Virus record (IMG/VR): IMGVR_UViG_3300027657_000001
Reading direction: 5' to 3' (one strand)
Origin: a virus
Length of the DNA stretch: 39,126 nt
Shown here one piece after another: positions 1 through 39,126 of this stretch (positions are counted from its first letter, which is position 1; every line of letters begins with the position of its first letter). A model generated the notes under the pieces. It had not been told where the DNA came from. It ran no database searches and was given only the letters and a program-made list of their open reading frames with translations. The translations under genes and the position numbers were made by a program.

Positions 1-127
1 GGACAAGGACGGGGACTTGCTCTTAAGCAAGAGGCAAGCATGAGTGATGTGGAACAAATACAGCCCCCCCAGATACCACCTTCAATGTTCCAGTTGTCCG
101 AGTCTCTCTCTCGTGAAATTCAAGAGA
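1..127. repeat. Terminal overlap, identical to 39000-39126. It marks the wrap-around of a circular or circularly permuted 38,999-bp genome.
   Basis: Compared base by base: ggacaaggacggggacttgc...cgtgaaattcaagaga occurs at both window ends. The repeat lies inside one continuous reading frame (portal). Confidence 0.95.
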
Positions 128-885
128 TATCGGGAGTTAACGAAGAGTTATTGGGTGCCGCAGATGATGACAAGGCTGGTATTCTTTCCATGCTTCGACA
201 GGGAGCAGGACTTACCACGCTTCAAAATCTATTTGATCAGCTTGATCAATCCCAAAAGATGCTTGGTAAACTCATTCTCAATGTGACTCAGCTCAACTAC
301 ACTCCTGGCAAAATCAAAAGAATCCTCAATGAGGAACCAACCCCACAGTTCTACAATAAGAACTTCGGAGCCTATGACTGCGCTATAGAAGAAGGTGCAA
401 ATACAAGTACGCAACGACAGCTCCAATTCGCTCAACTTCTTCACTTACGAGAAACAGGTGTTCCAATTCCCGAAGATGTCTTGATAAAAGCTTCTACAAT
501 TCAAGATAAAAAGGATCTGATTGAATCGATCCAGGCACAGCAACAAGCGGCGCAGCAGCAACAGCAACTTGCCCAAGAAATAGAACTTGAAGAAATAAAG
601 GCTCGTACTGATCTTGCCAGAGCGCGAGCAGTGGCCGACGAGGGGCTTGGAATGGAACGTGTATCTCGTATACAGGAAAACCAACAACTGGCAGTCGAAC
701 GGGCTGCGCAAGCTCAAGAAAATATTGCAGATTCACAAGCCGCACGAATGAGGGGTGTGCTCGATATGGTGAAAGCTATGAAAGAGCTCGATGACTTAGA
801 CTTGGCCCAAATTGAGCGACTCTACAACCTCGCGCAACAGATAAAACAGCAAGAGTCTGAATCGGTTTTACAAGACCAAATTTAG
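1..885 (+). CDS. Portal protein, C-terminal part. The gene starts at 37854 and wraps across the window junction.
   Basis: Frame 1 is open from base 1 (GQGRGLALKQEASMSDVEQ...) and is the same frame as the end of the window. The Gln/Ala-rich coiled C-terminus is typical of podovirus portals. Stop at 883-885. Confidence 0.85.
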   Translation, partial: GQGRGLALKQEASMSDVEQIQPPQIPPSMFQLSESLSREIQEISGVNEELLGAADDDKAGILSMLRQGAGLTTLQNLFDQLDQSQKMLGKLILNVTQLNYTPGKIKRILNEEPTPQFYNKNFGAYDCAIEEGANTSTQRQLQFAQLLHLRETGVPIPEDVLIKASTIQDKKDLIESIQAQQQAAQQQQQLAQEIELEEIKARTDLARARAVADEGLGMERVSRIQENQQLAVERAAQAQENIADSQAARMRGVLDMVKAMKELDDLDLAQIERLYNLAQQIKQQESESVLQDQI

Positions 886-4454: not shown

Positions 4455-4489
4455 GGGCCTTCGCTCACTTGAGCGGAGGCCCAATTTTT
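4455..4489 (+). terminator. Intrinsic terminator or attenuator between the scaffold and capsid genes
   Basis: 12-bp stem gggccttcgctc / gagcggaggccc (one G-U pair) with loop actt, followed by aattttt. Confidence 0.75.
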
Positions 4490-4626
4490 GTTATATATCT
4501 ATTTGACTGAATAAAAGACTCGTCACCTTTACGGCTGACATCAGGGACTCGCCAGCCCGTGGCTGACAATGAAGCTCGCCACTTCACAATGTAAATATTG
4601 TGAATCTTTTTATAAAAGGAGAGGCT

Positions 4627-4938
4627 ATGGCTGTAACTACTACAAGCCTTCTGCCCGCTCCAGTACAACAATCGTTTAGTTATAAACTATTGTCTGTTCC
4701 AACACCAGATTTTATTCACACGTTACCTGCTGAGAAGAAATACATGCCACGTCACGGTGGTACTACTCTTCGTTTCCGCAGATATAACCCACTGAATACG
4801 GCGTTGGTTCCACTGGGGAATAGCGGTGTTACACCACCAGCTCAAACACTGAGCGCTGTCGACATTGATGCCCGCATGTCATTCTATGGTACATATGTCA
4901 TACTCAACGAGCAGGTAACTCTGCAAAATCAAGACCCT
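4627..4938 (+). CDS. Major capsid protein, exon 1
   Basis: GGAGAGG then ATG at 4627. KYMPRHGGTTLRFRRYNPL...YVILNEQVTLQNQDP resembles the N4-gp56-type capsid family. The unspliced frame runs into a short unrelated tail and stops at 5001. Confidence 0.85.
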
Positions 4939-4993
4939 AAAATGAATGGGGTCTATAAACTTTCTCTAATTGACTTGGAAGCCGAAGTAGCTC

Positions 4994-5503
4994 TTAGCTA
5001 ACCGGTGACAGGGCCGAAGGATTTTTTAAAGGATGTTCATGCCAACGACTATTAAGATTGCGCAACTCACTCATAAGCTCAAAACGCTGATCATTGATCT
5101 GATCAGGAAGTCTTTTGCTTCCGATGTTTTTGCAGGTCTTTCTATATCGTCTCATGACATCACAATGTGGCTTTTTAATAATAAGATATGGTTCAACTAC
5201 ATCAAGAAGATAATCAAGCATTTCTCCGGTAGCTTGCCAGTTATAAACAGGTCGCGTAAATTTCTTTTTACTCGTCCATCTATAGCGGGAATCACGAGCT
5301 CCTCCAAATGTTTGTTCCAACCACTTAATGAGAATCTCATCGCAACTGGTTACTTTGAGCATGACATGCCATTGCCATCCAGATCCGTATTTACCTTGCT
5401 TAACTCTACCGATGTAGAAGCAACCTTCTCCATCGATGATTCCAGCAAGATAAGCAATTTGAGTGGCAATTTGGTGAGTATGAAAAATAACTTTTTTAGC
5501 CAT
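4994..5503 (-). CDS. LAGLIDADG homing endonuclease (single-motif type), antisense to the intron and capsid gene
   Basis: Motif YLAGIIDGEGCF plus LDYLLDVVEPYLIIKK. ATG at 5503 (MAKKVIF...). The track ORF extends to 5554. Confidence 0.85.
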   Translation of the reverse strand: MAKKVIFHTHQIATQIAYLAGIIDGEGCFYIGRVKQGKYGSGWQWHVMLKVTSCDEILIKWLEQTFGGARDSRYRWTSKKKFTRPVYNWQATGEMLDYLLDVVEPYLIIKKPHCDVMRRYRKTCKNIGSKRLPDQINDQRFELMSELRNLNSRWHEHPLKNPSALSPVS

Positions 5504-5524
5504 ATTGAATCTTTCGTTAATAGC

Positions 5525-5533
5525 AGTATAGCA
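5525..5533 (-). promoter_or_regulatory. Candidate extended -10 promoter (TGcTATACT) for the homing endonuclease gene
   Basis: On the minus strand, tgctatact lies 21 nt upstream of the ATG at 5503. The -35 region is weak. Confidence 0.3.
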
Positions 5534-5723
5534 CATAACGAATGTAAAATCCACGGTGAACGACTAAGTGAGAAAGCAAATGAGATGGAAATAGATAGTA
5601 CAAGAGCTTTTTGTCTCATTTGATGCGATAGTCTGACCTCCGTTCGATAAGACGGAGAGGGAGACCCGAAGAGGTTTCCCCGCCCGAAAGGGTCAGTAGC
5701 CGAAAGGTGAAAGTAACAGAACG

Positions 5724-6362
5724 GTTCTTAACGAAGCGGCAAATAGATTGGGCGTATCCCTTAAGCAAACAGAGGATACTCTTGCTCGTGATATGCTTGC
5801 TTCTACGGCATCGGTTATTAACTGCGTTGGCGGCGTGAACGGAGACAATCCGACTGAAATGACTCGCTCAGACGTAGACCAGGTAGTAAAAGTACTTAAA
5901 GGAAACGATTCTAAACCGTTTCTTTCTGGTATGGCTGGAGAAGACAAATTTGGGTCTGCTCCGGTTCGCTGGGCGTACTTTGCACTTGGAAGTACTGACC
6001 TCATTGGAGATTTGGAGAACGTGTCTGGGTTTATTTCTCAAGCACAGTACCCAAATCCGATGAATGCAATCAGTGATGCTGAGTGGGGTTCTATATCTAA
6101 CCTTCGATTCATGCTGTCTTCAATCGGCTCTAAAACAGCTAATTCTTCTGCAAATGGAAATGACGTATACAACGTCTTCTGTGTTGCACGTGAAGCATAC
6201 GCATGCGTTGAACAAGATGGATATAGCGCACAATTCATCTATCGCCCACCTATCTATGATGGGCCGTTAGCGCAGAACTCTTCTGCAGGGTATAAAATGG
6301 CACAAGTACCTCGAATCTTGAACGATCTCTGGGTACAAAACCTACGTTGCACCCTAGCGTAA
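5724..6362 (+). CDS. Major capsid protein, exon 2
   Basis: The frame is open from 5700. VLNEAANRLGVSLKQTEDTLARDML continues the capsid motif from exon 1. Both exons are multiples of 3 nt, and the spliced product is 316 aa. Confidence 0.85.
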   Translation, partial: VLNEAANRLGVSLKQTEDTLARDMLASTASVINCVGGVNGDNPTEMTRSDVDQVVKVLKGNDSKPFLSGMAGEDKFGSAPVRWAYFALGSTDLIGDLENVSGFISQAQYPNPMNAISDAEWGSISNLRFMLSSIGSKTANSSANGNDVYNVFCVAREAYACVEQDGYSAQFIYRPPIYDGPLAQNSSAGYKMAQVPRILNDLWVQNLRCTLA

Positions 6363-15567: not shown

Positions 15568-15624
15568 CAGGCGTAGGATGATGGCGCGGTAGTGATTTAG
15601 TAACTTTATATAAGGAGAGCCAGT

Positions 15625-17841
15625 ATGGCTGTTAGAAGAAAATCAAGACCATTAGTGGGGTACGGTCTAGACAACAGTTTGCAAAATTTAGCACCACTCG
15701 CAATTATTGCCAATCGTGCACCTACGACTGCCGATATTGCTGAGATTGGGACTACCTGGATAAATAAATTAGCAGATACCGTATATGTACTCACTTCCGT
15801 TGTAGCTGGTTCAGCCAACTGGGCAACTTCACCTGCTTCAGGCGCAACCACCTTAGCATCGCTTACTGTAACTACAACCGCTGATATCGGCACAGACCTG
15901 ACCGTAGGCGGCACATTAGACGTTACGGGTGCAACTACCGTTGGTGATCTGTCTGTTTCAGGTGCTTTCAATCTCAGTGCTGCTACAGGGCAGATAGACT
16001 TTACCTCCTCAGCCAACCAAGCTGATGCGATCGTTTTAGAAGCGACAGCAGGAGGAATTGATATTCTTGCCAGTGGCGCTTCAGCGGGCGAGGATATCGA
16101 TATCGTAGCCACTGGTTCTTCAGTAAATATTAGATCTACTGAAAATGTAGCCAATGCAATCTTCATTGAAGCTGACGGTGGGGCATCAGAAAGCGTTTAT
16201 ATCCACTCAGATCAAGGTACAGGCGTTGAGTCTATTCATTTAGAGTCGGATGTGGGTGGTGTAACCCTTACTTCAGGATTAGCTTCCGCTGATGCTATTA
16301 ACCTCTCTGCTTCAGCAGGTGGCATTGATGTCGATAGCGCCCTCCAACTCAATCTAGCTTCCTCACAGAATGCTGCTGATGCCATTCGTGTAGTAGCCTC
16401 AGCAGGTGGTATTGATGTGGACGCTGTAGGGTCTGCGGGTGAAGATATTAATATTACCAACACTGGTGGTTCTATTGTTCTGTCTGCTACTGAATCAGTT
16501 GCTGACTCTATAAAAATCGAATCTACTGCCGGTGGTATTGATATATTGGCTAGTGGGGCTGCGGCTGGTGAGGATATAGACATTATAGCTACAGGCTCTT
16601 CGGTTAATATTAACTCTACTGAGAACGTAGCTACCTCTATCGTTATCTCTTCAACAAATGGCGGTATAGACATTACTGCTTCGTCTGCTGAGGATATTGA
16701 TATCTCTGGTACAGGTGGTGTAAACATCTCCTCTACTGAGAATGCTGCTGGTTCTGTAACTATCTCCAATAACGGTGGCACGACTGATACACTGGTTCTT
16801 ACAAACACCCAAGGCAGTTCAGCTGCGGCCATAGATATTAATGCAACCGCAGGAGGCATCGACGCAGATGCTGATGGAGCTATCGCATTTGATTCAGCGA
16901 GTGCGGGTATATCTCTTGATGGTGTGACTGCTTCTAACTTCACCGTAACGGGTGCAGGACAAGATCTTACACTTGCTTCTTCTGGAGGATCGGTTTCTAT
17001 ATTGGCAACTGAAGATACTGCTTCTGCGGTATTGATAACAACGAACGGTGGAACAACAGAAACACTGGCCCTTAACGCGGCACAAGGTACAGGAGCTAAC
17101 TCCATAAACCTCGTTTCTGATGCCGGTGGTATCACCCTTACGTCTAACTTAGCCACTGATGACGGTATCAATCTCAATGCAGTTGGCGGAGGTGTCGACA
17201 TAGACGCTGAGCTTCAGATTAACATTGCTTCCTCTGAAGCTGCTGCTGATGCGATCGTTATTGATGCATCTGATGCTGCTGGAGGTATTGATATCAGTAC
17301 TGGTGGCGGTGATATGGATCTTACCTCAGCTGGTGGTATCAATCTGGTATCAACCGAAGATGCTGCAAACGCAATATTCATTGAGGCAGATGCCGGAACC
17401 TCAGAAACTATCTATATTCACTCGGATCAGGGCACAGGAGCTGACTCGGTACACCTAGAGTCTGATGTAGGTGGCGTAACCCTTACTTCAGGGCTTGCTT
17501 CTACCGATGCTATCAATCTCTCTGCTTCTGCTGGTGGAGTTGATATCGATGGAGCGCTTGAAGTAAATATAACTTCATCAGAAGCTTCGGTAGCTGATGC
17601 TGTTACTATAAGCGCATCTCATACTGCTGGTGGTATAACACTTGATGCTGGTGTAACTCCGGGTGTTACTGTTACTAACGGAACTCAATCGTTCCAGATC
17701 CTTACAGGGTCAGGTTCACCAAATGGAAGTGTCAGCGCTGCTCAGGGATCTATGTATGTAGATGTTGGGGGATCAACAAGTACGACTATACTTTTCGTGA
17801 ATACAGACGGTGGAACTACGTGGTTGGGGGTTGGAGCGTAA
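15625..17841 (+). CDS. Repetitive tail fibre or spike protein (738 aa)
   Basis: SD AAGGAGAG. Many degenerate AGGIDI / STENVA / GEDIDI units, with Gly/Ala/Ser/Thr/Asp-rich composition. Confidence 0.75.
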   Translation: MAVRRKSRPLVGYGLDNSLQNLAPLAIIANRAPTTADIAEIGTTWINKLADTVYVLTSVVAGSANWATSPASGATTLASLTVTTTADIGTDLTVGGTLDVTGATTVGDLSVSGAFNLSAATGQIDFTSSANQADAIVLEATAGGIDILASGASAGEDIDIVATGSSVNIRSTENVANAIFIEADGGASESVYIHSDQGTGVESIHLESDVGGVTLTSGLASADAINLSASAGGIDVDSALQLNLASSQNAADAIRVVASAGGIDVDAVGSAGEDINITNTGGSIVLSATESVADSIKIESTAGGIDILASGAAAGEDIDIIATGSSVNINSTENVATSIVISSTNGGIDITASSAEDIDISGTGGVNISSTENAAGSVTISNNGGTTDTLVLTNTQGSSAAAIDINATAGGIDADADGAIAFDSASAGISLDGVTASNFTVTGAGQDLTLASSGGSVSILATEDTASAVLITTNGGTTETLALNAAQGTGANSINLVSDAGGITLTSNLATDDGINLNAVGGGVDIDAELQINIASSEAAADAIVIDASDAAGGIDISTGGGDMDLTSAGGINLVSTEDAANAIFIEADAGTSETIYIHSDQGTGADSVHLESDVGGVTLTSGLASTDAINLSASAGGVDIDGALEVNITSSEASVADAVTISASHTAGGITLDAGVTPGVTVTNGTQSFQILTGSGSPNGSVSAAQGSMYVDVGGSTSTTILFVNTDGGTTWLGVGA
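16153..16335 (+). repeat. 183-bp internal repeat, copy A
   Basis: Encodes NAIFIEADGGASESVYIHSDQGTGVESIHLESDVGGVTLTSGLASADAINLSASAGGIDVD. Roughly 80% identical at DNA level to 17368-17550 by eye. Confidence 0.8.
17368..17550 (+). repeat. 183-bp internal repeat, copy B
   Basis: Encodes NAIFIEADAGTSETIYIHSDQGTGADSVHLESDVGGVTLTSGLASTDAINLSASAGGVDID. Confidence 0.8.
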
Positions 17842-20135: not shown

Positions 20136-21314
20136 ATGGCCTATAAGAGAATATCTCCCCTACCCATAATTGAGGGGGGAACCCAACGAACATCCATAGA
20201 TGCCAATACGGTAGTCTGTGGAGGAACCACGGCAACGGGTGCATTGCAGAACGTATCAGGTGTTGGAGAAAGCTCTCAGGCTCTCACCTCTCAAGGTGCC
20301 GGAAGTTTGCCCATATGGGCTGAGTTATCCAATGCTACCTTCTTTGAGCCGTTAGCATCAGATCCCAGCGATCCTACAGTAGGACAAGTGTGGTATAACA
20401 CTACCTCTCAAGAGTTCAAGGGGGCTATTGATGGCGGAAGTACCCCTACATGGACCACAAAAGCCTCATCGGGAACATCACAAGGTCCTTATCAAGGAGC
20501 TGCGGGGGATGATACTGATGGTCTGGTATTCGGTGATATTTCCGTAGTAGGTCTGACACAGCTCTATGATGGGGGAACTAATAGTTGGTCTACCAAAAAC
20601 TCAATGAATACCAGTCGTAAGCAAGCCGGTGGAGGAGGAACCACTTCTGATGCCTTGGGATTCGGGGGCGGAATTAACACCCCAACAGGAGTTCTTAACT
20701 CTACAGAATCATTTGATGGAACAAATTGGTCTGCTGAAAATAATATGAATACGGCTCGAAGAGAGCTCGCAGGATGTGGCACAACCGGGTCAGATTGCCT
20801 CTCAATAGGAGGCTGGAATAATGATTTTGGCGGCACTATTGGAACTGTTGAACGATGGAATGGCACAAGCTGGACAGCAAAAACTTCGCTCAATACCGTT
20901 CGCAAGCTCTTAACCTCAACTGGAACTGGATCAGATGCTTTAGCTGTTGGTGGTAACACTAATGCCGGAACCTTACTCGCTACCAACGAGCAATATGATG
21001 GTACAGCAAATACGTGGAGCACCAAGGCCTCTATGTCTAATGCGCGCAGAGATCCTGCAGCTGCTGGAACTGTAAGCGATGCTCTTGTATATGGTGGTGT
21101 AGGTTCCAGTGGCACAACAGGCGTTACAGAGCAGTATAATGGAACTTCTAATAGCTGGACTACTGTCGATTCTATGAATACAGCGCTCGCAACATTGGGA
21201 GGATGTGGATTGGTAACAGGCGCACTTGCAATGCTTGGAGGATCAGTAGTTACTGAGAAGTATGAAGGCGTTGTAGGTCCCACAATAGTAGTATTTGATA
21301 TAACGGCAGCATAG
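20136..21314 (+). CDS. Fibre paralog 2: shared N-terminal module plus Kelch-like beta-propeller repeats (392 aa)
   Basis: Repeats of about 47 aa of the form ..YDG..N.W......MNT.R......G...DAL..GG. Confidence 0.7.
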   Translation: MAYKRISPLPIIEGGTQRTSIDANTVVCGGTTATGALQNVSGVGESSQALTSQGAGSLPIWAELSNATFFEPLASDPSDPTVGQVWYNTTSQEFKGAIDGGSTPTWTTKASSGTSQGPYQGAAGDDTDGLVFGDISVVGLTQLYDGGTNSWSTKNSMNTSRKQAGGGGTTSDALGFGGGINTPTGVLNSTESFDGTNWSAENNMNTARRELAGCGTTGSDCLSIGGWNNDFGGTIGTVERWNGTSWTAKTSLNTVRKLLTSTGTGSDALAVGGNTNAGTLLATNEQYDGTANTWSTKASMSNARRDPAAAGTVSDALVYGGVGSSGTTGVTEQYNGTSNSWTTVDSMNTALATLGGCGLVTGALAMLGGSVVTEKYEGVVGPTIVVFDITAA

Positions 21315-21323
21315 GAGAAGAGC

Positions 21324-22505
21324 ATGGCTTATAAACAAGATGCACGACGTCCAGTAAAAGAGGGTGGGACTGAGAAGCTATCCTTCAACGAGTACTCCAT
21401 TATTATTGGAGGACAGACTGCTCCAGAGCCACTCCAGAATGCTGTACCTGGTGCTTCCGGGACTCTTCTTATATCGCAAGGTGTTGGTTCCCCACCATCA
21501 TTTCAGGTACCTCCTATAGATCAGATGAAGTTCCAGCTACTCAGCGCCGATCCGAGTTCTCCAGGAGACGGACAAGTGTGGTATCGTACTGACTTGGATG
21601 AATTTCGCGGGTCTACTACCGATACTGATGGTGTATGGACAGCTAAAACAGGTATCAGTACTGCCACTCGTGGGTTAGCAGCCGCAGGACAACAGGTTGA
21701 TGGGGGTATCTACTTTGGTGGGTTTACTACGGCTCGTGTAGGAACAACCGAGCAGTATGATGAAGGGGGCAATTCCTGGTCAGCTCTCGGCTCTTTGAAT
21801 ACAGCACGATTAGCGCTTGCAGGTGGAGGAAGTAGCAGCGATGCTCTTTCTGCTTGCGGTGATGCCCCAGGAGCATCAGCAACTACTGAACGATTTGATG
21901 GTGCCAATTGGACTGCTAAGACGAATGCTAATACAGCTGTTATCGGTGGAGCAGGGACTGGATCAGACGGGGAAGACTTTCTCAAGTTTGGTGGTAATAC
22001 GGGAGCTGCAACGGCAATTACTGAGCGCTACTCAGGAACGGGAGATTCGTGGACTAATAAGACCTCAATGAACACAGCGAGGTTTAGTTTACAGAATGGT
22101 GGCTCAGGAGCGGCAACAGATGCACTTTCTATTGGAGGATATACGGGTGCAAGCCCCTTTACAACTGTTGAGTTGTATGAAGGTGTGGGTAATACGTGGA
22201 CTGCTAAGACGGGCCTCAATACGGGCATGCGTTCAGGCGCAGCCGCTGGTATAGCAAGTGGAAATGCCCTCTCATGTGGTGGTAATGATGGAGCAGTCTC
22301 AGCAATATGCGAAAGATATGATAGAGCAGGTAATACGTGGGAAGTTATCAGCTCGCTCAATACTGCCCGACAACAGTTTCCCGGCCTCGGAACAGCTACT
22401 TCAGCATTAACGATGGGCGGTTTTACAACGGTAAACGTAGCGACAGTGGAGCAGTATTCTTCACCGGTAGCAACCATATATACATTCGACCTCACCGCAG
22501 TTTAG
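21324..22505 (+). CDS. Fibre paralog 3: shared N-terminal module plus Kelch-like beta-propeller repeats (393 aa)
   Basis: Same architecture as 20136..21314: TERFDGANWTAKTNANTA..., TERYSGTGDSWTNKTSMNTARF.... Confidence 0.7.
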   Translation: MAYKQDARRPVKEGGTEKLSFNEYSIIIGGQTAPEPLQNAVPGASGTLLISQGVGSPPSFQVPPIDQMKFQLLSADPSSPGDGQVWYRTDLDEFRGSTTDTDGVWTAKTGISTATRGLAAAGQQVDGGIYFGGFTTARVGTTEQYDEGGNSWSALGSLNTARLALAGGGSSSDALSACGDAPGASATTERFDGANWTAKTNANTAVIGGAGTGSDGEDFLKFGGNTGAATAITERYSGTGDSWTNKTSMNTARFSLQNGGSGAATDALSIGGYTGASPFTTVELYEGVGNTWTAKTGLNTGMRSGAAAGIASGNALSCGGNDGAVSAICERYDRAGNTWEVISSLNTARQQFPGLGTATSALTMGGFTTVNVATVEQYSSPVATIYTFDLTAV

Positions 22506-23454: not shown

Positions 23455-24153
23455 TTAGATAATTTTCTTACGGGTGTTCTTTATTTCCATCAAGCGGTTA
23501 CGGGTTTGGTGGTAATGCTCTTTAGGAATGTCCGCCAATGATTGTATTTTGAAATAGTGCAGAATCTCTTCTAGGTATCCCTCCATCGTCGGGTCTTGCA
23601 GTTCGTACTCAAGCTCCTCCCTTTGATCGGTAGAGATCACCTCATACTTCTGGTCAGTGGATTTAAACGTACTCATCTTTCCTTTAACGAACTCTTCTCG
23701 CAATGGTATGTCAGCCACGAATGCATCATCATCCTCAGATTCAGCTACCACGCCAATGAGGCTCGCGTATGCCAAACGTTTCATGCTCGATAGGTATGAT
23801 GTGAGGGTTTGTATTTCTTGTTTGGGAGGGGTGAGTTTTAGCCGTGTTTCAATCCATTGTCCGGACGAGTGGAACAGAATGGTATGGAGCATGGAGCTTC
23901 CATCTTCCAGGTGTTTTATTTGCTGCATGACGGAAAGCCCGTGCTTGGTGAGCGCTGGTCTCGATGCATTGACCACATCAACTAGGTCTTCATAACGGTG
24001 TTGGTAGTATTTATTTTGGTGGGAACGTTTTGCTGTTTGAAACTCTGCCTGTGCTTTTGCGAGGGCTCCCGTGAGTTCATTTATTTTGGTGCTCCGATAG
24101 GAGTTGGTTGGATCCACATCACTCATCAAAAGCTCATCACTTACTCTATCCAT
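23455..24153 (-). CDS. erf: ERF-family single-strand annealing protein, paralog 1 (232 aa)
   Basis: NKYYQHRYEDLVDVVNASRPALTKHGLSVMQ matches the Erf signature region (compare P22 Erf KYKYRSCEDILEGVKPLL). Confidence 0.7.
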   Translation of the reverse strand: MDRVSDELLMSDVDPTNSYRSTKINELTGALAKAQAEFQTAKRSHQNKYYQHRYEDLVDVVNASRPALTKHGLSVMQQIKHLEDGSSMLHTILFHSSGQWIETRLKLTPPKQEIQTLTSYLSSMKRLAYASLIGVVAESEDDDAFVADIPLREEFVKGKMSTFKSTDQKYEVISTDQREELEYELQDPTMEGYLEEILHYFKIQSLADIPKEHYHQTRNRLMEIKNTRKKII

Positions 24154-34035: not shown

Positions 34036-34503
34036 ATGAGCGAGTCAAAAAAAAGGCATTTTCAAATGCCAACGGTGAAACGAATCGTTGAGTATTGGAA
34101 TAACAAATTTACTATTTACGATAAAGAATGTTTTGCGTGCGGAAGAATAGCACCACTTCACAGAGCGCATATTGTCCCTTCTTGGATTGAAGAAAATAAT
34201 CACGTATCAAATCTACATCTATTATGTACTATGTGTCATGCTGAATCAGAAGGGCTGAAGCTCTATCAAGAGTGGTTTGATTATAAGCGAAAAAATGAAC
34301 GAAAAGATCCCGTTTCTCATGTTATAGACATGTGGAAAAAGTGCGGTATTCCATTTGATGAAGATGCTAAAGAGTTTGAATTGTATGAAGAGAAATTTGG
34401 AATAGAAAAATACTATAAAGAACTCTTGCCACGCTATATAGAAGAAACGCTAGATAAAGTTTACTACAATAAGCCTTATGCAAAAAAAGAAATGGGGATG
34501 TAG
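34036..34503 (+). CDS. HNH homing-type endonuclease (155 aa)
   Basis: CFACG...LHRAHIVP...NLHLLCTMCH gives the CxxC..H..N..CxxCH arrangement. Confidence 0.8.
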   Translation: MSESKKRHFQMPTVKRIVEYWNNKFTIYDKECFACGRIAPLHRAHIVPSWIEENNHVSNLHLLCTMCHAESEGLKLYQEWFDYKRKNERKDPVSHVIDMWKKCGIPFDEDAKEFELYEEKFGIEKYYKELLPRYIEETLDKVYYNKPYAKKEMGM

Positions 34504-34571
34504 CTCAGTTTGGTTAGAGCGTCCGCCTGTCACGCGGAAGGCCGCGAGTTCAAGTCTCGTCATTCCCGCCA
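34494..34571 (+). tRNA. tRNA-Asp: tRNA-Asp (anticodon GUC) with encoded CCA
   Basis: Cloverleaf folded by hand. Acceptor ggggatg/cattccc, D stem gctc/gagc, anticodon stem tccgc/gcgga with loop ctGTCac, T stem gcgag/ctcgt with loop ttcaagt, discriminator g, then cca. Confidence 0.9.
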
Positions 34572-34882: not shown

Positions 34883-37279
34883 GTGAACTTAGAAACAAAA
34901 ATAAAATTAGACGCCTTTCGCCCTAGACCATATCAGAAGCAGCCATTAGACGCTCTTTTCAACAAGGGCTATAAGAGAATGCTATTGGTGTGGCCGCGAC
35001 GCGGAGGCAAAGACGTCACCAGTTGGAATATCATCATACGAGCAGCCCTTACGAAAGTAGGGGTATATTTTTACTGTGCACCTACCTACTCACAAGGCCG
35101 CAAGATTATATGGGACTCTATAACAAATCATGCGGTTAAATTTTTAGATTATCTTCCAAAGGAGTTGATAGATCGGAAGAATGACCAGCAAATGAAGCTG
35201 CATTTAAAGAACGGCTCACTCATCCAGATCATTGGCTCTGATTCCTATGATAATTCAATAGTCGGGTCTAATCCTCAAGGGATCATATTTACAGAGTGGG
35301 CTTTGTCTGATGAGCGTGCGTGGCAGTTTGCTCGTCCTATTTTAATGGCGAATGACGGGTGGGCTATCTTCAATTCTACGCCAAGAGGCAAGAACCATTT
35401 ATGGGCTATGTATCAGCTAGCTCTACACTCTCCACAATGGTTTTGTCAAAAGCTTACCATTGAAGATACGGGTCACATTGATATTGAAACAATCCAAAGA
35501 GAACGTGCTTCTGGTGAGATGTCTGAGGATCTTATTCAGCAAGAATATTTTTGCTTTCCAGGTACTCAAGAGGTATTAGCTCTTGATGGATTAAAGTCTA
35601 TATCCGATATAGAAGTTAATGATATGGTCATATCTCATTCGGGAAGACCGAGAAAAGTTTTAAATACTATAAAAAGAGACTATGAAGGCGATCTAGTTAA
35701 AATATATTCATTTGGGTCTCCAGAGCCTCTGATATGTACGCCAAATCATCCTATACGGGTTTTTAATAAGGCCGCTCAAACATATTCATGGAAAAGAGCG
35801 GAAGATATTACCTTACATGATCGTCTCGTGTTTCCTAAAATGCCACTGGGGAAAGTGCAACTTATATCATATGATCTTTGTATGCTTATTGCTTGGTATA
35901 TCTGTGAAGGCTCTTCTTTTAAAAATGGTGTTCAATTTACTGTTGGGGACACAAGAGAAGTGGAACGCATTACGTCTCTTTTGTGTAATATAAATGTTCC
36001 ATATACTCTTTTTGTGTCTTCAAATGGATCATCAACCAATATTGTCGTTTCAAGCACTCAATTAGTTGATTTTTTTAAATCACTTTGTGGAACAGAATCA
36101 AATAATAAGCGCATACCGTTTATATGGATCGCTACGCATGAGATAGATTTTTTTCATGAGCTTATGTGGGGAGATGGCTGTTATTCAGAGCATAACAATT
36201 ATAAAAAATTTTCTTACACAACAACAAGTAAGACTCTTGCTTACCAAGTTCAGCTTCTTGCCAATAGTCTAAATCTTGGATATGCAGCGGGTATAACGAA
36301 CCGAAAGGGAAGTACTGCTACTTTTCCGCACGGTAAAACCTATAAATGCAAAGATTCGTATTCGGTGCAGATCGGCATAAAAGGCTTGAGAGAAAAGCAT
36401 GGTGCCTTAACAAGAGCAAAATACGGAATAGCTGCTCGTATCAAAAATATAGAAAGAGAAAGTCATAAAGGGGCCGTATACAACTTAAAAGTACAATACG
36501 ATGAAAGCTATGTGGTATTAGGACGCTCGGTACATAACTGTAGCTTTGAGATGGGCGTTGAGGGTTCATTCTACGCGAAATATATCGACACTATGAGACG
36601 AGAGGGACGGATTGGAATAGTTCCCCATGAATCTACTTTCCCAGTACATACAGCATGGGATTTAGGTGTTTCAAAAACTGATTCAACGGCGATAATATGT
36701 TTTCAGGTGATTGGTCAGACCATTAAAATAATTGATTGTTATGAGAGTACTAAGCAAGGTTTTCCAGAATATTTGCATATTCTAGAACAAAAAAAGAAAG
36801 AAGACGGATGGATATGGGGAAAGCATTTTGCGCCACATGATATAAAGGTTTTAGAATTTGGTTCTGGTTTGACACGCCTCGATATTGCAAGGAATATGGG
36901 ATTTTCTTTTGAGGTAAGGAGAGATAGGCATAATAATATTCAATCATTACTTCCACCGCTTACTATAATGGATGGTATTGAGCAAGTGAGAACTATTTTT
37001 CCCCGTGTTTGGATAGATGAACAAAAATGCTCTCCCCTTATTAAAGCTTTAGAAAACTATCGAGCAGAATTTGATACTAGAAATAATGTATATAAACGAA
37101 TACCTGTTCATAATTGGGCGTCACACATGGCCGATGCCATGAGATATTTGGCTATAGCAATTAAGTTAACACAAACGCGCAACTCTACGCCTGAAGAGCT
37201 TGAAAAGAGATACCGTGAAGCCGTCTATGGGCCTCAGCACGGAGGATTTTTCGGTGGACACGGTACGCATCAATGGTAG
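34883..37279 (+). CDS. terL: Terminase large subunit precursor (798 aa) containing an intein
   Basis: Walker A-like WPRRGGKDVTS, Walker B-like GIIFTEW, and nuclease-domain acidic motifs (AWDLGVS, FAPHD, HMADAMRYL). GTG start. Confidence 0.85.
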   Translation: MNLETKIKLDAFRPRPYQKQPLDALFNKGYKRMLLVWPRRGGKDVTSWNIIIRAALTKVGVYFYCAPTYSQGRKIIWDSITNHAVKFLDYLPKELIDRKNDQQMKLHLKNGSLIQIIGSDSYDNSIVGSNPQGIIFTEWALSDERAWQFARPILMANDGWAIFNSTPRGKNHLWAMYQLALHSPQWFCQKLTIEDTGHIDIETIQRERASGEMSEDLIQQEYFCFPGTQEVLALDGLKSISDIEVNDMVISHSGRPRKVLNTIKRDYEGDLVKIYSFGSPEPLICTPNHPIRVFNKAAQTYSWKRAEDITLHDRLVFPKMPLGKVQLISYDLCMLIAWYICEGSSFKNGVQFTVGDTREVERITSLLCNINVPYTLFVSSNGSSTNIVVSSTQLVDFFKSLCGTESNNKRIPFIWIATHEIDFFHELMWGDGCYSEHNNYKKFSYTTTSKTLAYQVQLLANSLNLGYAAGITNRKGSTATFPHGKTYKCKDSYSVQIGIKGLREKHGALTRAKYGIAARIKNIERESHKGAVYNLKVQYDESYVVLGRSVHNCSFEMGVEGSFYAKYIDTMRREGRIGIVPHESTFPVHTAWDLGVSKTDSTAIICFQVIGQTIKIIDCYESTKQGFPEYLHILEQKKKEDGWIWGKHFAPHDIKVLEFGSGLTRLDIARNMGFSFEVRRDRHNNIQSLLPPLTIMDGIEQVRTIFPRVWIDEQKCSPLIKALENYRAEFDTRNNVYKRIPVHNWASHMADAMRYLAIAIKLTQTRNSTPEELEKRYREAVYGPQHGGFFGGHGTHQW
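35552..36538 (+). mobile_element. Intein (329 aa) with a LAGLIDADG endonuclease domain inside terL
   Basis: Starts CFPGTQEVLALDG. Has block B CTPNHP and LAGLIDADG-type motifs LIAWYICEGS and ELMWGDGCY. Ends VVLGRSVHN, followed by Cys+1 (CSFEMG). Visibly more AT-rich than the exteins. Confidence 0.85.
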
Positions 37280-37302
37280 GCTCATACTTGGAAGGGAGTA
37301 CC

Positions 37303-37788
37303 ATGAAAAATCTGATGCTTTTAAGTACGTTGTTGGTTTTTTTTTCGCTGTATGGCAGTGAAAGCGATTCTGAAGAGGTAATATCAAAGCATTCAAGCAT
37401 CCGTGCAGATGAAGCAGCAGAGCGGGTGCTCATCTATCTGTTTGGTGAACGTCCAAGCCAAGAGATTAAAGATAAAGTGGCTTTTCATTTCGAGCAGAAT
37501 ATCCACCATGACCAATCTATTTGCGATTTTGTACGCGTTATCGAATCGAGTTCCTCCTCTTCGTCAGATTACGATCAAAGTGAAATGGCCATGCGTAAAT
37601 TAGTTATTAAAGCAGTCCAAGAAGCAATTGAAGAGCAAAAACTTGTTTCAGCCGACTATTTTATGCAGTTAAGTTTGAGAGAAAAAGAAGTTAAAAGGCA
37701 GAAATATAGATTCTATGGAGCCTTGGCCACCGCTCTTACTTCTGTAGCAGGCGTCGTAACCACCGTACTGGCCTATAATGTTTCTTGA
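37303..37788 (+). CDS. Signal-peptide protein with a C-terminal membrane anchor (161 aa), between terL and the portal gene
   Basis: AAGGGAGTACC then ATG. MKNLMLLSTLLVFFSLYG, a poly-Ser run, and C-terminal ALATALTSVAGVVTTVLAY. Confidence 0.6.
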   Translation: MKNLMLLSTLLVFFSLYGSESDSEEVISKHSSIRADEAAERVLIYLFGERPSQEIKDKVAFHFEQNIHHDQSICDFVRVIESSSSSSSDYDQSEMAMRKLVIKAVQEAIEEQKLVSADYFMQLSLREKEVKRQKYRFYGALATALTSVAGVVTTVLAYNVS

Positions 37789-37853
37789 TATATCTCAGGG
37801 GCCGTTTTAGTATGTGCATATAAGCGACTCGTAGAGAAAAAAGGGAGTACCGT

Positions 37854-39126
37854 ATGTCATTGTTTCCAAATCCTGGGCCTGATTTTAATACCACGGATGA
37901 CATAATCCTTAAAAGGATGGAAAAGTTTTATACTGATGCGATTTCTATAAATCAGTCTCAATGGGCGGAAGGTGACATAGATTGGCGATTTTATTGTGGT
38001 GATCAGTCAGTCTACCAAGAGTTGTACGGGAATATGGCACCCCTTCATAGAAAGAATTTTAGCTTCAACCGTATTCGGAGAATTGTTTCTCTTATAGAAG
38101 GCTTTCAGCGTCGTAACCGAAAATCTACCACGGTTATACCTGTGGAGGGATCAGATCAAGAAACGGCAGATCAATTCACTAAGCTTATGTATTACCTTAA
38201 CAATAGAGAAGGCGTACTGGATACTGTCTCTACGTCGTTTAAGGGTGCTCTTATTTCTGGAATGGATCTTCTGCAGGTGTATGTTGATTATCGACGTGAT
38301 CCTGTTTCAGGTGACGTTAAGGTAGACAACAACGCGTATAATTCTTTTCTTATTGATCCATTCTTTAGAAAATCTGATCTTTCTGATTGTAACACGATCT
38401 GGAAACGTTCATACGTCTCTCGCAAAGAGGCAATTTCCCTCAATCCCGCAAAGGCGGATGAAATTGAGGCACTTCAATCGTTCGTCGCTGATAAATCTGG
38501 AGATATGAAGTTCCAGTTTATGCCTGAGAACTACTCCATAAGTGGGAAAAACCTTCTTTCCTATGATGAATTTTATTATAGAGATTATCGCCTCCAAAAG
38601 ATGTTGGTTGACTCACAAACTGGTGAAACGTTTGAATGGCGAGTAGATGATGAAGCTGCATTGCGGGAATTCCTCGCTCTTTATCCACAAATTACTACCA
38701 TTGATCAAGAGATTCCTACCGTACGGGTAGCAATCGTAGTCCAAGGGAAGGTAATGTACGATGGCCCTAATCCCATGGGCATTGATTCTTTCCCCTTTGT
38801 TCCTGTTTTTGCATATTTTTCTCCGGAAGTGGCATACTACCCACTGCGCGTCCAAGGAGTTGTTTCAAACCTTCGGGACGCGCAGTTCCTTTACAATAGA
38901 AGAAAAGTTATTGAACTCGATATACTTGAATCTCAAATCAATTCTGGTTTCAAGTATAAGGCGGACTCACTCGTAAACCCCGCTGACGTATTCCTTTCTG
39001 GACAAGGACGGGGACTTGCTCTTAAGCAAGAGGCAAGCATGAGTGATGTGGAACAAATACAGCCCCCCCAGATACCACCTTCAATGTTCCAGTTGTCCGA
39101 GTCTCTCTCTCGTGAAATTCAAGAGA
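37854..39126 (+). CDS. Portal protein, N-terminal part. Open to the window end and continuing at base 128. Full length is 676 aa.
   Basis: AAGGGAG upstream of ATG 37854. I translated every codon to 39126 and found no stop. Includes LRDAQFLYNRRKVIELD. It is absent from the ORF track because no stop occurs before the window ends. Confidence 0.85.
   Translation, partial: MSLFPNPGPDFNTTDDIILKRMEKFYTDAISINQSQWAEGDIDWRFYCGDQSVYQELYGNMAPLHRKNFSFNRIRRIVSLIEGFQRRNRKSTTVIPVEGSDQETADQFTKLMYYLNNREGVLDTVSTSFKGALISGMDLLQVYVDYRRDPVSGDVKVDNNAYNSFLIDPFFRKSDLSDCNTIWKRSYVSRKEAISLNPAKADEIEALQSFVADKSGDMKFQFMPENYSISGKNLLSYDEFYYRDYRLQKMLVDSQTGETFEWRVDDEAALREFLALYPQITTIDQEIPTVRVAIVVQGKVMYDGPNPMGIDSFPFVPVFAYFSPEVAYYPLRVQGVVSNLRDAQFLYNRRKVIELDILESQINSGFKYKADSLVNPADVFLSGQGRGLALKQEASMSDVEQIQPPQIPPSMFQLSESLSREIQE
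39000..39126. repeat. Second copy of the 127-bp terminal overlap
   Basis: Identical to 1-127. Offset is 38,999 bp. Confidence 0.95.

Follow-up and report, generated by a model that had tools for sequence, protein, structure and literature searches.

In the 39,126-nucleotide (nt) stretch of viral DNA held as IMG/VR record IMGVR_UViG_3300027657_000001 (hereafter, the window, at its full length), the open reading frame (ORF) encoding the major capsid protein is broken, raising the question of what interrupts it and how an intact capsid protein could still be made. The interrupting segment, 4939-5723, is very probably a mobile group I intron in the major capsid gene of an uncultured phage with a genome of about 39 kilobases (kb). 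A group I intron had been proposed in an original prediction made from the letters of the DNA alone. That identification was borne out by the restored protein, the fold, the splice sites and a family-specific model, but it had overlooked an endonuclease gene that runs antisense to the intron and takes up two thirds of the insert.

When the frame of the first part of the capsid gene is followed past position 4938, a TAA stop codon is met at 4999-5001, with capsid coding picking up at 5724 in another frame and continuing to 6362. The break at 4938 and the restart at 5724 had both been predicted, and both are exact when judged by the ORFs and by the DNA of intron-less relatives. The interrupted gene is thus composed of the following parts.

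4627-4938, plus strand: capsid gene exon 1, from the ATG at 4627 through codons 1-104, ending ...CAA GAC CCT
4939-5723, plus strand: predicted group I intron, 785 nt, lying between codons (phase 0)
5724-6362, plus strand: capsid gene exon 2, codons 105-316 plus the stop codon

Joining 4938 to 5724 yields a 316-amino acid (aa) protein that matches PHROG 1357 ('major head protein') over its whole length, junction included, and that has more than 2,500 matches in a collection of 5.8 billion proteins, with 'N4-gp56 family major capsid protein' as the JGI description. The best uninterrupted homologues are 315-316 aa in length, share 92%, 85% and 76% identity with the joined protein and align without a gap at the junction. 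Such an alignment, suggested as a check when the intron was proposed, upholds the earlier claim that the join gives one conserved capsid segment. In an alignment of 11 capsid sequences, the junction falls within the invariant peptide QVTLQNQDP/VLNE (here and below, a slash marks the junction), again with no gap at that point. At the DNA level, the intron-less relatives L001 and L002 present the continuous sequence ...CAAGACCCT/GTTTTG..., fixing the site at CCT/GTT. Because the site can be seen in these two relatives, the intron borders are unambiguous, with the insert falling between two codons. The predicted spliced junction reads CAAGACCCT/GTTCTTAACG, the exon 2 side of which is also given as GTTCTTAACGAAGC, while intron-less alleles read CAAAACCARGAYCCN/GTNYTNAAYGA at the site. 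The phage has no close cultured relative, as megablast of the region against GenBank phages returned no match, a distant blastn search with the intron returned two short matches only and the matches obtained by tblastn with the capsid protein were all below 30% identity.

The fold of the insert was next considered. The helices, joining segments and insertion assigned to the intron are given below.

4932-4954, plus strand: P1 hairpin, exon AGACCCU (4932-4938) with guide GGGGUCU (4948-4954), 7 base pairs (bp), U4938.G4948 at the 5' splice site
4944-4947 with 5724-5727, plus strand: P10, GAAU with exon 2 GUUC, complementary in the window
4960-4966 with 5570-5576, plus strand: P3 (P3' is GAGAAAG), three of seven pairs covarying (UA/CG/GC)
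4974-5012, plus strand: P4 (4974-4977/5009-5012), J4/5 (GAA), P5 (4981-4984/5003-5006) and P5a (4988-4991/4997-5000)
5013-5016 and 5019-5025, plus strand: 5' strands of P6 and P6a, with partners at 5554-5557 and 5546-5552, from complementarity and covariation
5026-5545, plus strand: L6 insertion, 520 nt, carrying the endonuclease gene and missing in about 110 ORF-less relatives
5546-5576, plus strand: P6a' and P6' (5546-5557), J6/7, the 5' strand of P7 (GACUA, 5562-5566) and P3'
5562-5566 with 5629-5633, plus strand: P7, GACUA with UAGUC, A5566-U5629 covarying
5578-5586 with 5613-5621, plus strand: P8, a 9-bp stem with a 26-nt loop
5622-5633, plus strand: J8/7 (GAUGCGA) and the 3' strand of P7 (UAGUC, 5629-5633), from complementarity and covariation
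5638-5723, plus strand: 3' domain, comprising P9 (5638-5643/5652-5657), P9.1 (5660-5666/5673-5679, conserved CGAAGA loop), P9.2 (5682-5685/5690-5693, GAAA loop), a terminal hairpin (5699-5701/5706-5708, GAAA loop) and AGUAACAGAACG, ending in omega-G 5723

All of the core helices in the window, namely P1, P10, P3 to P9.2 and the last small hairpin, are fully complementary, and the intron ends in omega-G 5723. Each structural element put forward in the original prediction was recovered at these positions. P1 (closing on its U.G pair), P3 and P7 pair perfectly, P10 is complementary, P8 is indeed a 9-bp stem, the GAAA loops of the 3' domain lie at 5686-5689 and 5702-5705, and the final intron base is G5723; these helices are, moreover, kept by compensatory changes in 63 relatives. 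GACCCT precedes the insertion site in all intron-bearing alleles, as P1 requires, and the intron-less alleles differ there at synonymous positions. Across the family, a P1 of at least 7 bp ending in U.G was found in 64 of 111 introns, as compared to 6 of 129 shuffled controls, with P1 varying along with the host exon. The window intron has no P2 and only AGU (5567-5569) separates P7 from P3'. Landthaler and Shub reportedly assigned introns I1-I3 of orf142 from Staphylococcus phage Twort to subgroup IA2. That subgroup is marked by P7.1 and P7.2 between P7 and P3', which the window intron does not have, just as it does not have P2. Because the P7.1/P7.2 of Twort are lacking, the intron was kept out of subgroup IA2.

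Relatives of the intron were sought with the core string AACGACTRAGTGAGA-N8-38-TGCGAYAGTCTGA, a pattern that let R and Y vary independently. More than 120 viral contigs were matched, as against only five contigs among 185,579 species genomes, all five from metagenome-assembled genomes. The majority of the copies are ORF-less introns of 200-250 nt. The window sequence, with its L6 insert removed, and 63 non-redundant relatives were aligned with MAFFT, that is, without regard to structure. From this alignment, RNAalifold found P3, P4, P5, P6, P8, P9 and P9.1 unaided. With P7 added as a pseudoknot, standard pairs filled 96.7% of the cells, as compared to 75.5% upon shuffling and about 44% when the partner strand was slid. 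Changes on both sides were seen in 30 of the 42 pairs, and the observed values were reached in none of 500 shuffles. The sole variable pair of P7 (A5566-U5629) occurs as A-U in 57 sequences and as G-C in seven, with no mismatches. Because the search pattern had permitted R and Y independently, this exchange is real covariation.

A covariance model of the family, R1, was then built from 48 ORF-less relatives. When applied to the window, R1 gave 93.3 bits (E 7e-23) for the 3' half of the intron and 21.8 bits for the 5' half, and detected no second intron copy in the window. Independent contigs carry the same intron, again with the antisense gene, at the identical capsid site. Among the 171 distinct intron 3' junctions found at the loci collected, 76 lie in the same capsid family, with about 40 of these at residues 103-105, the window site, which the sampling favoured; the others are scattered over at least 15 further positions.

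Several family introns were observed to lie within 2-3 kb of each other in the viral and metagenome contigs L166, L163, L020, L016 and L045. Six R1 matches were counted in each of L166 and L163, some being the two halves of endonuclease-bearing introns, and three introns fall within 1.6 kb in L020. An ORF-less relative was also seen in GenBank entry MW202674.1 at 16872-17088 (L007, 2318-2534), where it splits a 'P22 coat protein' gene. The final 33 bases of this relative are 97% identical to those of the window intron, and the record lists two separate 'P22 coat protein' coding sequences and a 39-aa hypothetical protein around it.

The L6 insertion and its surroundings contain three further features, two of them antisense to the capsid gene.

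4994-5503, minus strand: LAGLIDADG homing endonuclease gene, 169 aa, in L6, antisense to the intron
5510-5533, minus strand: candidate promoter and ribosome-binding site for the endonuclease gene, with an extended -10 element TGcTATACT (5533-5525) and GAAAGA (5515-5510) ahead of the ATG at 5503
5033-5623, plus strand: stop-free sense frame (196 aa if translated), a codon-for-codon mirror of the endonuclease gene that runs through P6', P7, P3' and P8 to a TGA stop at 5621-5623

The endonuclease contains one YLAGIIDGEGCF motif with its acidic catalytic residue intact. It matches Pfam family PF00961 (LAGLIDADG_1) at 23.5 bits (cut-off 23.1) and PHROG 5046 (E 7.5e-22). In the PDB, it matches I-PanMI (E 2.4e-7), I-AabMI and I-MsoI, with residues 13-156 aligning, weakly (E 0.1-0.3), to the 170-aa I-MsoI; with one motif and 169 aa, it may belong to the homodimeric I-CreI/I-MsoI class of about 170 aa. 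Homologues form 229 clusters of 161-170 aa. Divergence at the three codon positions amounts to 0.22, 0.14 and 0.49, respectively, as would be expected under selection at the protein level. The last 11 or so codons of the gene overlap P6, P4', P5' and P5a. A TATAAT-like box, often with TG before it, together with a Shine-Dalgarno sequence, was found upstream of the gene in 11-12 of 12 homologous introns.

Across this intron family, the endonuclease is, as a rule, encoded antisense. Of 80 metagenome loci fetched by alignment to the endonuclease, more than 50 have R1 matches flanking the gene on the other strand, with only two matches being found on the endonuclease strand. The ORF-less relative L013 holds an endonuclease-less remnant of the intron at the same capsid site. 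As a separate observation, Stenotrophomonas phage StenR_269 contains a free-standing LAGLIDADG gene (OR838459.1, 51942-52391; L006, 2630-3079), the product of which is 31% identical to the window enzyme. Annotated as 'intron homing endonuclease', this gene has the scaffold and capsid genes as its neighbours, shares their strand, lies between the two and has no surrounding intron, and could represent a stage before or after association with an intron.

The endonuclease gene avoids the codons TTA, CTA and TCA, the complements of which are stop codons, and it is for this reason that its mirror frame on the sense strand is open. In the other genes of the window, these codons make up 31% of leucine and 29% of serine codons. 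In the window endonuclease gene, they occur only in the last dozen codons, upstream of the start of the mirror ORF. Among 52 antisense-embedded endonuclease genes of the family, sharing between 77% and about 35% identity, only 21 of 1,169 leucine plus serine codons are TTA, CTA or TCA. Fifteen of these 21 stem from two doubtful loci, and 46 of the 52 genes have none. By contrast, in 26 related genes that are not embedded, the same codons account for 171 of 530 leucine plus serine codons, with a single gene being free of them. Neither sense-oriented intron endonucleases nor the StenR_269 gene shows such avoidance.

The pattern does not reflect a lack of synonymous change. In 18 close homologues, all 22 conserved leucine or serine columns use at least two synonymous codons, and the forbidden codons were observed once in 420 instances, as compared to about 126 expected. 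Across the family, the mirror frame has a median length of 201 codons and covers a median 96% of the distance from P4 to J8/7, with those frames that end near the core doing so most often at the UGA of the invariant GUCUGA. In the window, AAAGGA (5028-5033) precedes an ATG (5039) of the mirror frame; most close relatives likewise have AAAGGA followed after five bases by ATG, with GTG at that spot in one. The possibility of an ordinary shadow ORF was considered and rejected, given that the longest TTA/CTA/TCA-free runs of other genes span 39-95 codons, versus about 157 here and a family median of 201. Elsewhere in the window, ORFs of 187-322 aa lie opposite large plus-strand genes at 15606-17200 (minus strand) and 20564-21330 (minus strand) and are either shadow ORFs or overlapping genes; these long ORFs served as a caution when the mirror ORF was judged. 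A Pfam search with the mirror ORF identified no family, and its predicted product is conserved at 46% identity, versus 74.5% for the endonuclease. The mirror ORF is, therefore, probably not a functional protein. Judged by these comparisons, it is the openness of the mirror frame on which selection acts, not its product. The stop-free pattern is statistically solid; it implies selection for an open sense frame, and such a frame is probably translated.

With the insertion, the restored protein, the fold and its covariation, the endonuclease family, the family-wide antisense arrangement and the stop-free sense frame established here, splicing, homing and translation of the mirror frame can be inferred along the following lines. 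The capsid pre-mRNA would fold into the group I core and splice itself by two transesterifications, with an external guanosine attacking after U4938 and exon 1 then attacking after G5723, such that CCT/GTT would be joined and the 316-aa capsid protein produced. The single-motif LAGLIDADG gene in L6 would be transcribed on the opposite strand from its own -10-type promoter. Because the gene is antisense and would have its own promoter, translation of the endonuclease would never load ribosomes onto the ribozyme, and expression of the enzyme would be uncoupled from the very strong late capsid transcript. In a mixed infection, the enzyme would cut intron-less capsid alleles near ...CAAGAYCCN/GTN..., with repair from the intron-bearing genome then copying the intron in. 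A palindromic target suited to a homodimeric enzyme, CAAAAC...GTTTTG, was noted in one intron-less allele but was missing in the other eight, and this candidate was dropped.

As to why the sense frame is kept open, a second constraint on the endonuclease gene is conceivable, although the odds are somewhat against it, namely, that its mirror frame has to remain open, the likely reason being that ribosomes translate the L6 insert of the capsid pre-mRNA (a 'ribosome runway'). As a mechanism, this is conjecture. Ribosomes would start at AAAGGA-N5-AUG 5039, possibly re-initiating after the exon 1 stop at 5001, and would stop in J8/7. Their passage would shield a long, unstructured and slightly C-rich part of this late transcript, the one in heaviest use, from Rho-dependent termination or decay, with the endonuclease itself being made from a separate antisense mRNA. 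The L6 insert is only mildly C-rich (skew -0.10, median C/G ratio 1.24), which is weak as a Rho-loading signal. The window revealed no recognisable phage RNA polymerase. The idea, moreover, runs counter to the published view that splicing is harmed by ribosomes within a group I intron (PMC3073962, PMC2988022).

Several observations weigh against a mobile, self-splicing group I intron with its own endonuclease promoter. At the gathering score of 50, the Rfam model RF00028 (Intron_gpI) reported no intron. With relaxed settings, the same model scored only 21.6 bits (E 0.005) on the window and 14.4 bits on the ORF-less L013. The frame of exon 1 reaches 21 codons into the intron, through P1', P3, P4 and P5, before its stop, a longer run-in than bacterial group I introns usually have (PMC3073962). 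A generic sigma-70 scan upstream of the endonuclease gene found no -35/-10 pair, such that the promoter was called from a conserved -10 box read by eye. The covariance-model search proposed for this locus had, accordingly, a divided outcome, failing with the general Rfam model and succeeding with R1. Still, the sub-threshold RF00028 alignment places P7, P3', P8, P7' and P9 correctly, yet scores this intron class poorly.

Low Rfam scores are also what would be expected were the element a decaying intron that no longer splices, leaving the capsid gene as a pseudogene in a defective genome, and the endonuclease-less remnant in L013 reveals that family members do decay. This is, however, quite improbable for the window intron, in which every core helix is perfectly paired, the 3' half reaches 93 bits with R1, the endonuclease ORF is of full length with its acidic motif residue intact, and the exons are intact and conserved; the same arrangement is, moreover, found in many independent contigs. 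Alternatively, an endonuclease cassette, rather than an intron, might have broken up the capsid gene, the two parts of which would be translated separately into polypeptides that co-assemble, much as the annotators of the related metagenomic phage MW202674 called two 'P22 coat protein' coding sequences around an ORF-less relative. Such an arrangement is highly improbable here, since exon 2 has neither a start codon nor a ribosome site at 5724 (the first in-frame start being TTG at 5748), the break falls within an invariant peptide and the flanks pair with the insert as P1 and P10. Moreover, relatives of 200-250 nt with no ORF, and hence no endonuclease, interrupt genes in the same manner. Finally, an intein could be envisaged given the apparent LAGLIDADG intein in the terminase gene of the same genome (see below), as could a group II intron, given that LAGLIDADG genes occur in some of these. 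Next to no weight can be given to either, both having been refuted by the reading frames and by the fold, which is that of group I. The exon 1 frame meets TAA at 4999-5001, and exon 1, the sense ORF and exon 2 lie in three different frames, such that no in-frame translation of the insert with the capsid gene is possible; nor does the insert present a reverse transcriptase, a domain V or an Rfam group II match.

Against this background, the capsid intron was compared to known systems. Introns were said in the original prediction to be reported far less often from phage structural genes than from nucleotide-metabolism or polymerase genes; they are, however, not so rare there, as published examples include three in the Twort tail tube gene orf142 and others in the Tuc2009 capsid, LittleE capsid and BAKA tail genes (PMC3706429). 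Indeed, a capsid-gene group I intron carrying a bottom-strand LAGLIDADG gene is of a known kind, with LittleE as the proven precedent. In this mycobacteriophage, the capsid gene (gp13) contains an intron of 819 bp, the bottom strand of which carries a LAGLIDADG ORF (Pope et al. 2013; PMC3706429), and splicing of the intron was proven by reverse transcription PCR (RT-PCR) and protein sequencing (PMC3706429). As in the window, a group I-type intron interrupts the major capsid gene of a phage, the last base is U in exon 1 and G in the intron, and the LAGLIDADG gene is opposite to the capsid-gene strand. In LittleE, however, the endonuclease is inserted after P7/P3' rather than in L6, a P2 is present and the mirror frame contains two stops and is not kept open. 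The two endonucleases share the motif only (20 aa), and R1 recognises the LittleE intron weakly, at just 10.1 bits.

The best match of R1 outside the family is the tail-gene intron of mycobacteriophage BAKA. With filters off, a 5 kb search with the model scored this intron at 28.6 bits (E 3e-7), with the alignment ending exactly at the 3' splice site mapped by RT-PCR. The BAKA/Optimus intron is 265 nt long and ORF-less, with splicing having been seen by RT-PCR (PMC3706429). Like the window intron, it is compact, lacks P7.1/P7.2 and has the 3' end motif AGUAACA...G, but it is GC-rich, has no endonuclease, resides in another host gene and is distant in sequence. With filters again off, R1 scored introns I3, I2 and I1 of Twort orf142 (AF132670) at 26.6, 20.4 and 13.6 bits, respectively. 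In Twort too, several related group I introns are found in one virion structural gene, and the strings AACGACUA and AUAGUCUGAAC, the P9 UAUGGAAACAUA hairpin and GUAACA near the 3' end are shared; the Twort sequence was confirmed at 98.6% identity. The Twort introns differ in having P2 and a 32-nt P7.1/P7.2 insert where the window intron has AGU and no P2.

The placement of the endonuclease gene likewise has parallels. In the phage T4 td intron, the I-TevI ORF lies in the P6 loop, as here, with its 3' end overlapping core helices (PMC3073962, PMC2988022), and expression of the endonuclease must not disturb folding (PMC3073962, PMC2988022). I-TevI is, however, a GIY-YIG enzyme encoded on the sense strand, with its ribosome site masked by a hairpin, whereas the window gene is antisense and the sense frame is open. 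I-DirII of Didymium iridis is encoded antisense to a group I intron and is independently transcribed from a promoter of its own (PMC3073962, PMC9548176). It differs in being a His-Cys box enzyme in eukaryotic nuclear ribosomal DNA, driven by RNA polymerase II; as the host RNA is untranslated, no mirror-frame issue arises. In a cyanobacterial dnaX intein (bioRxiv 10.64898/2026.09.14.751524) and the ShiLan element (PMC11855218), an endonuclease gene reportedly overlaps a second stop-free frame, but that frame is the host protein's own. In the window, the mirror frame is off both exon frames and on the strand opposite to the endonuclease gene, and the element is a ribozyme.

What seems to be new is the family-wide antisense endonuclease with a stop-free mirror frame in the sense direction. 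Among open-access papers, neither this intron family nor the mirror-frame constraint was found to be described. The family, a very large and almost purely phage-borne one of compact introns, has come to occupy no fewer than 15 positions in the capsid gene of a single widespread group of uncultured phages. As such, it offers a natural system for addressing intron spread and the gain and loss of endonucleases. That the mirror frame stays stop-free despite heavy synonymous turnover suggests that something reads it. Should ribosomes indeed translate the intron loop up to the catalytic core, then the view that translation and group I splicing are kept separate in bacteria would need refining, and the runway would represent a hitherto unreported means by which a mobile intron carries a gene within a highly expressed and translated bacterial gene. 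On a practical level, gene callers split capsid genes at such introns, as in MW202674. Endonucleases aimed at the capsid gene of a rival phage could, moreover, act in phage-phage competition, as has reportedly been shown for PhiPA3 (PMC11620839).

Other regions of the window were also inspected. Just upstream of the capsid gene, a strong terminator-like hairpin (4455-4482, plus strand; 12 bp, nine of them G-C, followed by a T-run) lies downstream of a scaffold-like gene. Between this hairpin and the capsid start (4455-4600, plus strand) are CTCGYCAC... repeats, GGCTGACA twice and a weak promoter-like site (4563-4590); the region may be one of late-gene control. The terminase large subunit ORF (34979-37279, plus strand; 766 aa) matches terminase only at aa 3-192 and 662-724. 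The intervening insert begins in a Hint-type manner (...EYF/CFPGT) and ends ...SVHN/CSF, with Pfam LAGLIDADG_3 at 393-442 and Intein_splicing at 211-520, the latter at 32 bits, slightly under the cut-off. The terminase gene thus appears to be interrupted by a LAGLIDADG intein, in which case two types of self-splicing element would reside in the genome, both equipped with a LAGLIDADG endonuclease. The portal gene appears to span the ends of the window (1-885 and 37273-39126), since the match of 40-885 is confined to the C-terminal half of the portal profile and, directly after the terminase gene, an ORF opens at 37273. The window is, therefore, probably a complete, circularly permuted genome of about 39 kb. 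The terminase gene is closely preceded by a transfer RNA gene (34494-34568, plus strand; 69.8 bits). Finally, an ERF-family recombinase gene was noted at 23455-24153 (minus strand), the product of which would be of use in the repair step of homing.

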